Assembly: GCA_044892505.1 (NCBI GenBank)
Contig: CM097882.1
Span: forward strand, 321,966,001 to 322,030,000
DNA: 64,000 bases
Direction: 5' to 3'
DNA from: Schmidtea nova
Lineage: Eukaryota
Shown here one piece after another: positions 6,407-27,446 of this stretch. Position numbers and translations under genes: made by a program. The notes under the pieces are model-generated. The model saw only the letters and a list, made by a program, of their open reading frames with translations, was not told the DNA's origin and did not search any database. The first letter of the stretch is position 1. Every line of letters starts with the position of its first letter.

Positions 6407-7783
6407 TTACGCCAACCATCCTTTTCTGTCTGTTTTCTCATGCCTCTCCATCTCTATGTATAGCGTGTCTGCATATAGTCGCTCCCATAGGTTTTCCTTC
6501 CTTATAAACATTGGTTCTCCTGCTGCTAGTCCGCATTCTGTTGTTGGTTTTTCGCTCGTACTCGAATGTTTGTCTGTTTCAAAGAACTTTTCTACTGGTT
6601 TTCCCATACTTTTGATTCTGATAATGACTCCTATTTTCAAGGGCCATTCTATTAGGTCATCGTATTCTCCTTTACATAGTGAGAAGAATATTGACACGTG
6701 TGTTCCTTGTCCTCTTCCGTCTCCATTTGGGTATACTTTCAATCTTATTTTAACCCCGTTTTTCCATAAATAAAATGGTGGGCTTATTACTGCTGTTTTC
6801 GTCATATTTCTGGCTTCTGCTAATTTGTCTCTGAAATCTGTTACTTTCCATAGGTAAGGTGCGATTGGTAAGTCCCTTCTTTCGTCAATTTCTCGTATTA
6901 ATTGATTATATTGTATTTTCATTCCTTTTCCTAATTCTTCTATGGCTATTATTTTCTTTTCCATTCTTTCGCGAGTTAGTTCAAACTGCTCTCTTGTTTC
7001 TAGTAGTAAACTCATCATTATCTTATGTGATTCTACTTCTTTTTCTAATTTCTGGATTGTCTGTTTCGTTTCTTTTGTCGTTTCGTTTGTCATTTCCACA
7101 TGCGTTAGTGCTGCTTCTTCTAGGTGTTGTTTCATTGATTGCCGCGTCCGCTTTTCTTTGCATCCCTGTTTGTTATATGGACATTCTATTGGTCTTTCGG
7201 TACATACTTTCCAATGTTCATGTAACTTTACTTCTTCTGTTAATTCGCAATTGTTTGGACATTTACTTACATATTGTCTGCATACTTTCTCCTCTGTTAT
7301 ATTCAAGTGTTCCTCTTCGATTTTTCTCCTTGTTTCTCGAGTTTCACAATACTCGCATGCGATTTCTTCTTCTTTACATTCTTCCTTGTGCTGTTCTCTC
7401 TTCTTTAGAATTATTGTCTGTTGGCACTTCTCGCATTCGGTTCTTTTCTCCTCGCACTTTTCCATATGGTTTTCTAGATTACTTATTTGTCCTTGCCATG
7501 TACAAGGTGTATTTACGCACTCCGTTGTGGTGCTCATAATTTCTCTTTGGGTTGCTTTGTCCGTTCTGGTTTCGTCCAACGCTATTCCTCCTTCTTTACA
7601 TTCTGGGCATGTTGTTATTCCGGTGGTATCTAATTCTTGTATACATTTTGTACATATTCTACATCCACATATCGTTTGTCTGGGTTCTCGTAATAAATTG
7701 TTACACTTCCCGCATGTGAGCCTCTTACTCCATTTTCTGTTTTCTAATCTCAAAATTTCGATGATTCGTTCTTCTCTGTCCAT
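6407..7783 (-). CDS. TRAF: Full-length intronless TRAF-family protein (RING, TRAF zinc fingers, coiled coil, MATH)
   Basis: RING CGKC..LREPRQTICGCRICTKC..CPEC; zinc fingers such as CVNTPCTWQGQISNLENHMEKC and CPYNKQGCKEKRTRQSMKQHLE; MATH YLWKVTDF..SPPFY..KIRLKVYPNGDGRGQGTHVSIFF..GEYDDLIEWP. Confidence 0.95.
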   Translation of the reverse strand: MDREERIIEILRLENRKWSKRLTCGKCNNLLREPRQTICGCRICTKCIQELDTTGITTCPECKEGGIALDETRTDKATQREIMSTTTECVNTPCTWQGQISNLENHMEKCEEKRTECEKCQQTIILKKREQHKEECKEEEIACEYCETRETRRKIEEEHLNITEEKVCRQYVSKCPNNCELTEEVKLHEHWKVCTERPIECPYNKQGCKEKRTRQSMKQHLEEAALTHVEMTNETTKETKQTIQKLEKEVESHKIMMSLLLETREQFELTRERMEKKIIAIEELGKGMKIQYNQLIREIDERRDLPIAPYLWKVTDFRDKLAEARNMTKTAVISPPFYLWKNGVKIRLKVYPNGDGRGQGTHVSIFFSLCKGEYDDLIEWPLKIGVIIRIKSMGKPVEKFFETDKHSSTSEKPTTECGLAAGEPMFIRKENLWERLYADTLYIEMERHEKTDRKGWLA

Positions 7784-7876
7784 TTTCTACAATAATATAT
7801 ACATTCGACTTGTCATTTATTTTTTGATTTTTCCTGTTTTTATTTTTACATATTTACAGTTTTCCGCTTTATTTAT

Positions 7877-8233
7877 CTATGGCTCATTCGTTGAATCTGG
7901 TTCCGCTTCGTTGTTTAATCTATTTATTACCCAACTCATCCATCCTTCTTCGGATCCTTCTCTTTCTCCTCGTGTTAAATGGTTTATTTCTATTGCTTGT
8001 CTTTGATTGGTGTTGCTTATCGTTTGATTTTCTCTGGTGAGTTCAGTTATCGCTCTTTGTTGTTCTTCTATTCTGTGTAATTGTTCAAAACAGTTGTTAT
8101 AACTTTCTGATAATAACATTTGTCTTTCCGCTAATTGGTTCTGTAATGAGTTGACTGTTCGTACTAATAAATCACATTGTGCCTTCCATCTCATAGCCAT
8201 AGTTATTTCAGTTGTTTCGTCCTGTTCGGTCAT
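7877..8233 (-). CDS. 118-aa coiled-coil protein, unknown function
   Basis: ATG-initiated, heptad-like (LLVRTVNSLQNQLAERQMLL..LHRIEEQQRAITEL); tttag|aa-ATG context. Confidence 0.65.
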   Translation of the reverse strand: MTEQDETTEITMAMRWKAQCDLLVRTVNSLQNQLAERQMLLSESYNNCFEQLHRIEEQQRAITELTRENQTISNTNQRQAIEINHLTRGEREGSEEGWMSWVINRLNNEAEPDSTNEP

Positions 8234-8357
8234 TTCTAAATTATATACATCATTTACTTTGTTTTTCTAGCTTTTTACAATTTTTATAATATCGATACCC
8301 ATACTATTACGGTAATGCTTTGTTATTTACACTATTATTTACAGTCATAATCCGCCC

Positions 8358-26115: not shown

Positions 26116-26155
26116 TAACGCCTAGCTAGGTCATTCAATATGGCTCATTGGCCTC

Positions 26156-26505
26156 AACCCTTTTTTTCAAGGGACAAACCGCTAATAACCCTTTGTTTCA
26201 AGGGACAAATCTCCTAACCCTTTGTTTCAAGGGACAAATCTCATAACCCTTTGTTTCAAGGGACAAATCTCATAACCCTTTGTTTCAAGGGACAAATCTC
26301 ATAACCCTTTGTTTCAAGGGACAAATCTCCTAACCCTTTGTTTCAAGGGACAAATCTCATAACCCTTTGTTTCAAGGGACAAATCTCATAACCCTTTGTT
26401 TCAAGGGACAAATCTCCTAACCCTTTGTTTCAAGGGACAAATCTCCTAACCCTTTGTTTCAAGGGACAAATCTCATAACCCTTTGTTTCAAGGGACAAAT
26501 CTCCT
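26156..26505. repeat. 29-bp tandem array, 11 near-perfect copies plus 1 degenerate
   Basis: Unit aaccctttgtttcaagggacaaatctc(a/c)t, period 29 from 26187 to 26505. Confidence 0.97.
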
Positions 26506-26984
26506 AACTTTACTTAACCGGTTAATCACAATTCCCTACTTCGCTAGCGATTAAAATTTCTCAGCTGAGTTATAACTACTTCTATGCGAGCTGACTATGC
26601 ACCTTTCTATTCTTTCAAAAATGTCATTTATCTCTCTATTCTATCCTAACTAAATTCTGATCAGTCTGCTTCAACTTTTTATTTATTTTTCTTATGCGCG
26701 CTTTACTCCATCAAGATTTCCCTATCTCTCTCCCCAATCAAAATATACAAAAAGATCGCGTTGGTCCATTAATGCAGGATGTGGTGATCAGTCACATCAC
26801 AAAAACTTTCCAACATTTGCGATGGGCCCCTTTCTATACACCCTGACTAGGTTGATCAATCGGTACCTCCCAATGGGTTCTTATCGGACTACTTTGTAGT
26901 AGCTCAAAAATTATTTATATATTACAATTGTACCCATGATTTCATCATTAATAGACCAACAAAACTCCACTTAAACATTATTTA

Positions 26985-27446
26985 TTATAAATATACAATA
27001 ATTTTATCGTCTATCATCAGGTTGCACATAGGACATAGGTCGCATTTGCTGGCACATATTTTACAAAAGCGAAAATGTCCGCAAGGTAAAAACATAATTT
27101 GTATCTCGTTATCCTCACATATATAGCACTGTCGGTATTTTTTCGCTGCTTCTACCCCCTGCGCCCTCCATTGATTGTATGTTGGGGTTAATCGTTGTTC
27201 TATTTGCCTGCACTTAATGTTTAGTTCTGCATTTTCTAATCGTGCTCTGTACCATTTGTAGCGGGTCTCTATGTCGATTTTTCTTGTTCTTTCTGTTATC
27301 TTTATTAATTCATCTGTTTCCTCAGTCTGTGTTGTGGGTTCTTGAAATTCAATTTCTCTAAATCGGTTTATTTTCTTGCCAATCGTTTCTAATGTTTCGC
27401 TTTCTGTGTTGAGGAATTCTTCGATTTCTTTCAGTTTTTCCTCCAT
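26985..27446 (-). CDS. Coiled coil plus C-terminal IAP-type RING (C3HC4) E3 ligase, no BIR domain
   Basis: CYICEDNEIQIMFLPCGHFRFCKICASKCDLCPMCNLMIDDKIIVYL matches the IAP C-terminal RING pattern C..C......vFlPCGH..C..C.....CP.C..I. Confidence 0.85.
   Translation of the reverse strand: MEEKLKEIEEFLNTESETLETIGKKINRFREIEFQEPTTQTEETDELIKITERTRKIDIETRYKWYRARLENAELNIKCRQIEQRLTPTYNQWRAQGVEAAKKYRQCYICEDNEIQIMFLPCGHFRFCKICASKCDLCPMCNLMIDDKIIVYL

Follow-up and report, generated by a model that had tools for sequence, protein, structure and literature searches.

The stretch of Schmidtea nova DNA analysed here (64,000 nucleotides, hereafter the window) holds a young, unbroken env-bearing Gypsy LTR element of approximately 29.9 kb (1163-31015, minus strand), the cargo modules of which are under purifying selection across copies. 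Judged by layout and domains, set against published descriptions as opposed to named reference sequences, the element is a member of the published Burro/GYPSM1 kind. The selection shows that the cargo has a function, but not which function.

Anatomy of the element

The five module types named in the preliminary description (TRAF, RING, Bcl-2-like, ankyrin and ubiquitin-like or Ubl) were all confirmed on the minus strand of a single LTR element, between positions 6407 and 27446, but they are not five separate genes: the Ubl, Bcl-2-like and ankyrin domains are in-frame parts of a Gag-Env-Pol polyprotein, whilst the RING and TRAF have ORFs of their own. On sequence grounds the TRAF, RING and ankyrin assignments are firm and the Bcl-2-like and Ubl assignments moderate. 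In the host genome five related lineages were found, in which cargo modules recur at 30-53% identity. The features of the window element, in its own reading direction, are as follows.

27794..31015, minus strand: 5' LTR, at least 3,222 nt long and over that length 100% identical to 1163-4384
28244-28852 and 29027-29506, minus strand: two ORFs inside the 5' LTR
27753..27770, minus strand: primer-binding-site-like 18-mer, which we take to be of the tRNA-Pro type; in lineages B and E the same site directly follows the LTR
26985..27446, minus strand: 153-aa ORF with a coiled/helical N-part and a C-terminal XIAP/cIAP-type RING, without BIR
25892..26566, no strand assigned: tandem repeats in the 5' untranslated region, with units of 32 nt and 29 nt
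8358..25340, minus strand: polyprotein frame of 5,660 codons, first Met at codon 174 (24821)
23931..24821, minus strand: Gag with three CCHC zinc knuckles (dN/dS 0.06)
22356-22619, 21807-22085 and 21000-21245 (within 21000..22619), minus strand: three ubiquitin-like segments (dN/dS 0.06, 0.02 and 0.06)
21237-21497, minus strand: conserved, unnamed helical domain preceding the last Ubl
19941..20465, minus strand: Bcl-2-like helical domain directly ahead of the Env signal segment
18021..19808, minus strand: Env, a fusion glycoprotein of the Monjiviricetes type that has a membrane segment and lies in frame with Gag and Pol, between the two
14061..17495, minus strand: Pol, with protease (DTGA), RT (YIDD), RNase H and integrase
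12141..13943, minus strand: two ankyrin-repeat blocks, an internal duplication (Pfam Ank_2, E 2.1e-13, two stretches; dN/dS 0.15 and 0.14)
8361..11813, minus strand: seven FN3-like repeats in a 4+3 arrangement, seen by repeat alignment, together with signal-like and transmembrane segments, seen by hydropathy
7877..8266, minus strand: small coiled-coil ORF with homologs in lineages D and E (dN/dS 0.14)
6407..7786, minus strand: full-length, intronless TRAF with RING, zinc fingers, coiled coil and MATH in order
5233..6324, minus strand: coiled-coil ORF with homologs in lineages D and E (dN/dS 0.09)
4588..5193, minus strand: small ORF with a lineage-E homolog, its product having signal-like and transmembrane segments (dN/dS 0.32)
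1163..4384, minus strand: 3' LTR, its outer end reaching an N stretch (395-1162)

The polyprotein runs in the order Gag-Ubl-Bcl-2-like-Env-PR-RT-IN-ankyrin, followed by an FN3-like C-terminus; in codons 1-173 the indels found in copies add up to multiples of three. A Retrotrans_gag match (Pfam) was found on the lineage-B homolog of Gag. Env, positioned between the Bcl-2-like domain and the protease, matched PF24664 (E 2.2e-71) and has a hydrophobic segment at residue 2412 (dN/dS 0.03), and the selection count for RT was N=0 and S=78. For the dUTPase-like domain that Burro/GYPSM1 elements have between PR and RT, no Pfam match was obtained; that stretch is conserved (dN/dS 0.03). The single ankyrin block of lineage B matches both blocks of the window. 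The preliminary description had likened the ankyrin arrays to IkB mimics, which is unsupported for the window element, as the ankyrin block's 58 PDB matches (to DARPins, ankyrins, Kidins220, MIB1 and others) include no IkB. The FN3-like C-terminal region looks, from its predicted segments, like two tandem type-I membrane proteins. Its repeat profile matched fibronectin in the PDB (E 1e-4), as well as Tie2 and tenascin, and the lineage-B homolog matched Pfam fn3 (E 2.9e-6); the window sequence itself gave no significant Pfam match and Atlas leads below 0.9, and no homologs of the region were found among shorter proteins (dN/dS 0.21 and 0.42).

The TRAF matched Pfam MATH_2 (E 1.4e-20), zf-TRAF (E 1.3e-8) and, weakly, RING (0.024), with TRAF3, TRAF5 and TRAF2 as top PDB matches (E 1e-23; dN/dS 0.19/0.18/0.10). 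Its RING has Cys in place of His, a variant also present in two single-frame genomic TRAFs (28-29% identity). The whole TRAF query was essentially covered in 92/92 scored genome matches (in 91 as far as residue 458, in one as far as 457), 87 of them without an internal stop. The RING ORF, open in 16 of the 17 copies covered, matched Pfam zf-C3HC4_3 (E 1.3e-11), and the best 10 of 38 PDB rows were XIAP, cIAP and BIRC7 RINGs (E 6e-10 to 7e-8); shared-variant dN/dS was 0.21 for the RING and 0.25 for the N-part. A Pfam scan found no BIR domain in this ORF or in any of the 10 window proteins scanned. Since cIAPs bind TRAF2 via BIR1 and the RING ORF has no BIR, the TRAF-cIAP complex suggested earlier is unsupported for the window element. 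A complex prediction that paired the RING protein with a trimer of the TRAF coiled coil and MATH (score 0.02, mark 0.34) speaks neither for nor against it.

The window sequence of the Bcl-2-like domain alone gave no Pfam match and a best E of 1.7 in a single-sequence PDB search. A profile including the same-position homologs of two other lineages matched Bcl-xL (E 6e-5), and the lineage-C homolog matched PF00452 (E 3.7e-6). With the AF2 model (mean pLDDT 60.5), Foldseek returned Bcl-2-family rows only, all at E>=0.01 (none at E<=0.001), and VIA returned Bcl-2-family chains in 7 of the 9 top rows, the best Z of 7.5 lying inside the chance range for helical folds; viral Bcl-2 proteins form the majority of the best fold matches. 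A BH2-like P-x5-GGW is retained and the BH1 NWGR motif is missing. The domain is strongly constrained (dN/dS 0.05; N=8, S=50); it had no usable Atlas match, and a profile search among longer proteins found no homologs. For the Ubl segments, a pooled profile of 10 segments matched a designed ubiquitin (E 1.3e-9) and ISG15 (E 5.6e-4) in the PDB, single-repeat profiles were weak (E 0.64 and 1.1), and profile-profile comparisons between single repeats gave nothing significant. When each of the three window segments was left out in turn, it scored on profiles built from the rest, its own orthologs among them. A fourth candidate (23136-23399) reached only 1.1 bits against the other Ubl profiles and was dropped. 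Single-sequence AF2 of polyprotein residues 640-1830 gave a pLDDT of 33.6. The Bcl-2 and Ubl assignments of the preliminary description are upheld at moderate strength; for Bcl-2, the structural matches agree on the family but stay below the thresholds of the tools.

A homolog of the window LTR ORF was found in the lineage-E LTR (32%). Four sequencing runs from one study, their kind unrecorded, covered 30/30 bins; none of the intron-like joints listed for them recurred, and they are uninformative on expression. A 1.84-billion search for homologs returned one relative, P0001.

Selection and related lineages

In variable-site counts with a fixed transition weight, made among up to 21 copies (93-98% identical, chosen from the best TRAF or BIR matches), all cargo modules had a shared-variant dN/dS of 0.02-0.42, compared with 0.67-1.40 in non-coding and 1.57-6.26 in shifted-frame controls; the p-values are nominal as the copies are related and were picked by best match, and the transition weight is fixed. 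No neutral decay of the cargo was found, the first of the outcomes that the preliminary description had named as counting against its idea, and the constraint on the Bcl-2-like and Ubl domains is near that on Gag. Private variants also had dN/dS below 1 in most modules, which would be expected from unsampled sublineages and the picking of best-matching copies. In most modules constraint was stronger for shared than for private variants, and stops occurred among the latter; this is the pattern of selection during replication. Lineage E is likewise under selection (TRAF 0.11, FN3 0.24).

In an unrooted tree a branch (99/97) separates the six element MATH domains from 17 further MATH domains of the genome. 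MATH is in frame with the polyprotein in lineage B and in P0001, and its serine-rich receptor-binding segment varies between lineages. The copies are dispersed and young, with LTR pairs 100% and 99.8% identical. The single lineage-C copy read had no TRAF, RING or ankyrin, and the Bcl-2-like domain had no match at 20 loci of lineage D, so that no single toolkit is obligatory across lineages. A non-autonomous status for lineage E, proposed from one copy (L107), was rejected, IN and ankyrin being present in 11 of 12 further loci; the twelfth was an unrelated TRAF.

Lineage D has lost its replication genes but has amplified, and selection maintains its TRAF, BIR-RING IAP, RING, protease and ankyrin. 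Matches to gag, env, RT and IN were found at 0/20 loci and a joined Ubl-PR-ANK frame at 16/20, and 126/126 best matches lay in frames no longer than 1,197 aa. Its TRAF adjoins a true BIR-RING IAP, and dN/dS was 0.06 (N-part) and 0.26 (MATH) for TRAF, 0.24 for IAP, 0.09 for ankyrin and 0.23 for the RING ORF. Twin LTRs (the pair checked in one copy) and many young copies are present; the LTR and leader DNA are 74-92% like those of the autonomous lineage B (leader 88.9%), and a B-type primer-binding site was not found in the one lineage-D copy read.

Possible roles of the cargo

The explanation which we favour, and hold to be probable, is that of a Burro-type endogenous Gypsy virus, inserted not long ago and still amplifying, with cargo that damps cell death and innate signalling for element replication. 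Its basis is the observed anatomy, homologies, selection and copy structure, to which processing, particles and an anti-death target are added by presumption. Copying would proceed via LTR reverse transcription and integration and, given the Env, enveloped particles would probably be made. The polyprotein would be cleaved by its own protease and signal peptidase, which would release Gag, Ubl, Bcl-2-like, Env, Pol and ankyrin products as well as FN3 membrane products, whilst the RING, TRAF and coiled-coil proteins would come from separate ORFs. The cargo would serve the element within the cell expressing that copy: the Bcl-2-like domain, possibly membrane-tethered through the Env signal segment, would act with the E3-type RING and TRAF to hold back death and innate signalling long enough for replication, and the surface of the particle or cell is where the FN3 membrane proteins probably act.

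This explanation is favoured because every module is selected, the modules recur across lineages and the element MATH domains group together, and because lineage D keeps TRAF and BIR-RING IAP selected without gag, env, RT or IN; BIR-RING IAPs and Bcl-2 folds are dedicated death regulators. It is weakened by the moderate Bcl-2 fold call, the non-canonical BH1, a window element without BIR and a toolkit that differs between lineages C, D and the window family. The available text of PMC8532177 describes live differentiated cells in which FISH detected BURRO1 transcripts following smedwi-2 RNAi; it also describes a smedwi-2 RNAi phenotype not improved by BURRO1 RNAi, which counts against the explanation.

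It is possible, if rather doubtful, that the cargo serves the element's life cycle instead, with RING, TRAF, Ubl and ankyrin ubiquitinating or sequestering silencing or restriction factors (e.g., of the PIWI pathway) or recruiting budding machinery, and the Bcl-2-like domain being a repurposed scaffold, as are several poxviral Bcl-2-fold proteins. The frame shared with Gag-Env-Pol, by which the Ubl, Bcl-2-like and ankyrin domains are produced along with the particle proteins, the missing BH1 NWGR and the differing MATH receptor-binding segment would all fit, as would the PIWI control of Burro described in the available text of PMC8532177. However, lineage D has neither Gag nor Env, yet its complete BIR-RING IAP beside TRAF is selected, and IAP, TRAF and Bcl-2 folds together point to one host pathway. 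A benefit to the host, in which selection would act on inserted copies and semi-domesticated cargo would be a distributed TRAF/IAP supply in stress or immunity, appears unlikely: the greater constraint on shared variants, the stops among private ones and the dispersed, young copies argue against it, even though private-variant dN/dS is below 1 in most modules and Schmidtea mediterranea TRAF/MATH transcripts are numerous and well expressed according to the available text of PMC6109357. That the cargo is neutral captured DNA, intact merely from the youth of the copies, is very improbable; the high identity of the copies and their picking among best matches would suit it, but dN/dS is far from the value of approximately 1 in non-coding controls, orthologous cargo persists between lineages just 30-53% identical, and the selection results for the window family, lineage D and lineage E have already largely refuted it.

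Extending the favoured explanation, we would tentatively suggest, as something that may well not hold, that Burro lineages buy survival for the cells expressing them, and that lineage D is a helper-dependent, cargo-only parasite whose cassette is kept for favouring its carrier cell. Were this true, lineage D would parallel, in an invertebrate, the defective transforming retroviruses and could bias planarian stem-cell clone competition, the FN3 membrane proteins would be a separate attachment or decoy system alongside the fusion protein, and the reported planarian TRAF "expansion" would partly be mobile-element cargo. In planarians, tissue turnover depends on stem cells and apoptosis; counts of planarian TRAF, IAP and Bcl-2 genes, as well as RNAi phenotypes, may be confounded by multi-copy element genes. 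As lineage D separates cargo from replication genes, the question of function is directly testable.

Comparison with known systems

Both the module observation and the idea of host manipulation are already published. Section 7 of a 2019 review (PMC6431247), citing Jurka 2007 and Grohme 2018 on Burro-1..4/GYPSM1, lists TRAF, BIR, ankyrin, BCL2, Ubl and env in Burro/GYPSM1 and proposes interference with host apoptosis and ubiquitination, leaving open, and deeming worth testing, whether these domains act; the selection across copies implies that they do something. The manipulation of host survival or immune signalling put forward in the preliminary description thus gains from cargo that is not decaying neutrally and from the moderate Bcl-2 and Ubl assignments, but it is not a new idea. 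New here are the cargo selection, the C-terminal FN3-like membrane repeats, the five lineages with grouped TRAF-C, and lineage D; section 7 of the review has no FN3-like membrane repeats, selection tests or cargo-only non-autonomous family. The titles and abstracts listed in searches for prior reports added nothing on this point, and the Burro-2/3/4 extended data of Grohme 2018 may already show the layout, FN3 and lineage D.

Like Burro/GYPSM1 of dugesiid planarians, the window element has a length of ~30 kb, long LTRs, one ~5,000-aa ORF, a CCHC Gag, Ubl, BCL2-like and Env domains in frame ahead of PR-RT-RH-IN, ankyrin, TRAF-C and accessory ORFs. Its TRAF is full-length and has an ORF of its own, downstream of the polyprotein, whereas MATH lies in ORF1 of Burro-1 and in an upstream ORF of the D. 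tigrina element; BIR is listed in the review for GYPSM1/Burro, as a variable accessory part, whereas the window element is without BIR and has an upstream RING-only ORF; and the polyprotein has 5,660 codons, compared with 4,873 and 5,140 aa in published elements. The host planarian TRAF family is expanded, according to the available text of PMC6109357, and has the same RING-Zn-coiled-coil-MATH layout, but the element MATH domains form a group separate from the other 17 genomic ones sampled.

Large DNA viruses (gammaherpesviruses, ASFV, baculoviruses and poxviruses) have captured the same classes of regulator (v-Bcl-2, v-IAP and ankyrin), although sequence evidence for descent of the cargo from them was not found; here, unlike in those viruses, the regulators lie in an LTR retroelement, partly within Gag-Env-Pol, and their activity is putative. 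Acutely transforming retroviruses are replication-defective and helper-dependent and carry captured host genes, whilst LARD/TRIM-type elements are non-autonomous LTR elements. Lineage D resembles both in its twin LTRs, its many young copies and its lack of gag, env, RT and IN, and its helper dependence and any growth advantage would be presumed by analogy; it differs in that a multi-gene cassette of TRAF, IAP, RING, protease and ankyrin is selected in germline-inherited copies.

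Layout of the window element and its divergent domains

The main features of the element, in window coordinates, are:
1163-4384 and 27794-31015: direct repeats, 100% identical over 3,222 nt
1613-2221 and 28244-28852: ORF within the LTR
6407-7786: MATH domain and TRAF zinc fingers (Pfam)
8358-25340, minus strand: frame of 5,660 codons
26985-27446: C3HC4 RING (Pfam)

Several smaller minus-strand ORFs also lie between the direct repeats, the left of which adjoins an N stretch at its outer end. In the long frame, Pfam identified a Monjiviricetes fusion glycoprotein (E 2.2e-71) as well as zinc knuckles, ankyrin repeats and the enzymes protease, RT, RNase H and integrase. 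The DTGA and YIDD motifs of the catalytic sites are both present, as are three CCHC knuckles. The closest solved structures are those of TRAF3, 5 and 2 for the TRAF, and the XIAP and cIAP RINGs for the RING. The LTR ORF is probably a real gene, as the LTR of lineage E, one of four related lineages (B to E) in this genome, contains a homolog at 32% identity. At 24822-25340, 173 codons are open upstream of the first Met, with indels that are net in-frame and a dN/dS of ~0.5; lineages B and E likewise have ~100 codons open ahead of the Met, which suggests splicing or a start codon other than AUG.

The Bcl-2-like and Ubl parts of the window have no Pfam match, and relatives were therefore required for both assignments. 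The segment preceding the Env signal shares 30% identity with its positional counterpart in lineage B and ~20% with that in C, the latter matching Pfam Bcl-2 at E 3.7e-6, below the curated cut-off, whilst a joint profile matches Bcl-xL (E 6e-5). An AF2 model built from 14 element sequences (mean pLDDT 60.5) returned only Bcl-2-family chains among the Foldseek matches listed (best E 0.01) and in seven of the nine top VIA rows, where the best Z of 7.5 (rmsd 3.4 over 110 residues) is also reached by unrelated helical folds. Viral Bcl-2 proteins rank first, weakly, in a viral library; BH2 is present and the BH1 NWGR motif absent. The convergence of profile, Pfam and fold matches makes the Bcl-2-like assignment of the preliminary description likely but not proven. 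Its Ubl assignment has moderate support: a pooled profile of ten candidates matches ubiquitin-like chains and the lineage D homolog matches Rad60-SLD at E 0.028, but single repeats match weakly as profiles and one of the four window candidates does not score against a profile of the others.

Residues 4510-5660 comprise seven repeats with a common Cys/Trp pattern, each found by a profile of the others at 26-53 bits, against at most 3 in reversed controls. All 15 PDB matches of this profile are FN3 proteins (best E 1e-4), and the lineage B homolog passes Pfam fn3. Hydrophobic segments flank the repeats, suggesting two tandem type-I membrane proteins, but an additional hydrophobic stretch behind the first repeat makes this topology tentative.

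Elsewhere in the window there is a Pogo/Tigger-type DDE_1 transposase frame (51872-52900), a second frame with a weak aspartyl protease match (54650-55231), an HTH of Tc1/Sleeping-Beauty type (57572-58063) and a partial RT frame inside long inverted repeats of 97.6% (58438-60707), probably a Penelope-like remnant. The element's 5' flank (31142-33014) is another dispersed repeat, with a 90% match at a second locus (L072) and a weak Pao peptidase match. An inverted pair of 94% identity (1-394 and 62748-63135), with 62 kb between, probably represents a small repeat present twice. The genome also holds several frames of host-like Bcl-2 family type (L073-L081), some of them forming a group of copies that have diverged or contain stops.

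Selection on the cargo

A genome search with the TRAF gave 92 scored matches from 6,309 first-look candidates, a lower bound; in this best-hit sample all 92 are essentially full length and 95-100% identical, and 87 are stop-free. The window was compared with 20 copies drawn across this list, 17-20 of which cover each module, and dN/dS was calculated from variants present in at least two copies. Values were 0.00 for RT, 0.03 for Env and 0.06 for Gag; among the cargo they were 0.05 for the Bcl-2-like domain (8 N, 50 S), 0.02-0.06 for Ubl, 0.14-0.15 for ankyrin, 0.10-0.19 for TRAF, 0.21 for RING, 0.21 and 0.42 for the FN3 blocks and 0.09-0.32 for other accessory ORFs. Four non-coding stretches gave 0.67-1.40 and shifted frames 1.57-6.26; p-values are nominal, because the copies share ancestry and individual sites cannot be counted as independent, though the gap to the controls is large. 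Private variants usually show less constraint and include stops. The TRAF is open in 18 of 20 copies and the RING in 16 of 17, whereas for the central pol stretch, a longer target, the figure is 11 of 18. Lineage E is likewise constrained (TRAF 0.11, FN3 0.24). Since module values lie below the controls, with lineage E alike, the cargo does not show the neutral decay that the preliminary description named as refuting its reading; it is real and strongly constrained.

Related lineages and a cargo-only family

Gene order in lineage E is that of the window element, with identities of 46-86%. In the one E copy compared, Env (L107:2748-4528) is 97% identical to window 18021-19808, with TRAF at 51% and PR at 78%, which suggests either that env was exchanged recently or that it is under extreme constraint. 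In lineage B, MATH lies in frame among the Ubl segments of an ORF of ~4,990 aa, a layout shared by P0001, the only homolog from outside this genome. The Gag-Ubl-Bcl-2-Env-Pol frame of lineage C is ~3,070 aa long and includes a single FN3-like repeat; the lineage C locus (L067-L068, G000:C3:59826000-59845200) holds a shorter element in which there is one Ubl and the Bcl-2 domain is more canonical, with a membrane segment beside the FN3-like repeat and a 739-codon downstream ORF lacking a Pfam match.

A BIR search gave at least 150 matches above cut-off, mostly in ~399-aa frames. The lineage D locus is:
G000:C1:54613523-54636811 (L070, L071, L139), minus strand, ~23.3 kb in all

Its LTRs are 99.8% identical over 3,124 nt and it carries a RING ORF, a 1,045-aa Ubl-protease-ankyrin-FN3 frame, a coiled-coil ORF, a full TRAF, a BIR-RING IAP and more ORFs; the family also has several coiled-coil or membrane ORFs. 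At 20 further loci (L087-L106) the joined frame is present in 16 and truncated or interrupted in four, and within the 10 kb fetched for each, none matched lineage B gag, env, RT or IN. All 126 best matches of the ankyrin block sit in frames no longer than 1,197 aa. Lineage D is thus an amplified non-autonomous LTR family. It is 88.9% alike to B in the leader and 74-92% in LTR parts but only ~50-72% in proteins, as would be predicted were B its helper; the one D copy read showed no primer site of the B type.

Shared-variant dN/dS in D is 0.06 for the TRAF N-part, 0.26 for MATH, 0.24 for IAP, 0.09 for ankyrin, 0.23 for the RING ORF and 0.27 for protease, with weaker constraint in Ubl (0.46) and FN3 (0.63) and controls at 0.65-2.18. 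If there was a single deletion and no autonomous sister supplied the variation, this selection postdates the loss of autonomy. A defective family would lose any protein that all its copies could draw on, so the likely beneficiary is whichever copy a particular cell expresses.

In an unrooted tree, a branch (99/97) separates six MATH domains of the elements, some standalone and some in-frame, from 17 other genomic MATH domains, sampled out of 150 listed matches. A His-to-Cys change in the RING is common to the element TRAF and two single-frame genomic TRAFs. A single capture of a planarian TRAF, long ago, would fit. A dense cluster of divergent MATH matches on G000:C2 (~405-455 Mb) is likely host TRAF expansion.

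Possible function and comparison with Burro

The element would reverse-transcribe and integrate as Gypsy elements do and then bud as an enveloped particle, whilst its Bcl-2-like, RING/IAP and TRAF products would keep the expressing cell alive and quiet its innate signalling. We consider this joint reading reasonably probable. The main rival, considerably less probable, is that the same parts instead disable silencing factors or serve budding. Two details of the preliminary description are weaker. The canonical TRAF2-cIAP complex requires BIR1, and so could not be formed from the window RING ORF, in which no BIR was found; in lineage D, TRAF is paired with a genuine IAP. IkB mimicry finds no support among the PDB matches of the ankyrin block. 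For the relative BURRO1, RNA was found in live differentiated cells after smedwi-2 RNAi, the phenotype of which was not rescued by BURRO1 RNAi, according to the available text of PMC8532177.

In the open-access papers searched, we found no earlier account of FN3 repeats, of a cargo-only family or of tests for selection, although Grohme 2018 may already cover the layout. The accessible text of PMC6109357 describes TRAF expansion in planarians and draws no link to elements, and that of PMC11410931 mentions Burro once. The toolkit and its interpretation are already in print, as section 7 of PMC6431247 gives both: it describes MATH_TRAF_C, BIR, ankyrin, BCL2-like and Ubl/SUMO-like domains in Burro/GYPSM1, with env between gag and pol and no annotation of the FN3-like region, and proposes that Burro may interfere with apoptosis and ubiquitination. 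Lineage D and the evidence of selection are added here, and with them the published, open Burro hypothesis becomes testable. In the reviewed layout, Burro-1 carries MATH in frame, as does lineage B.
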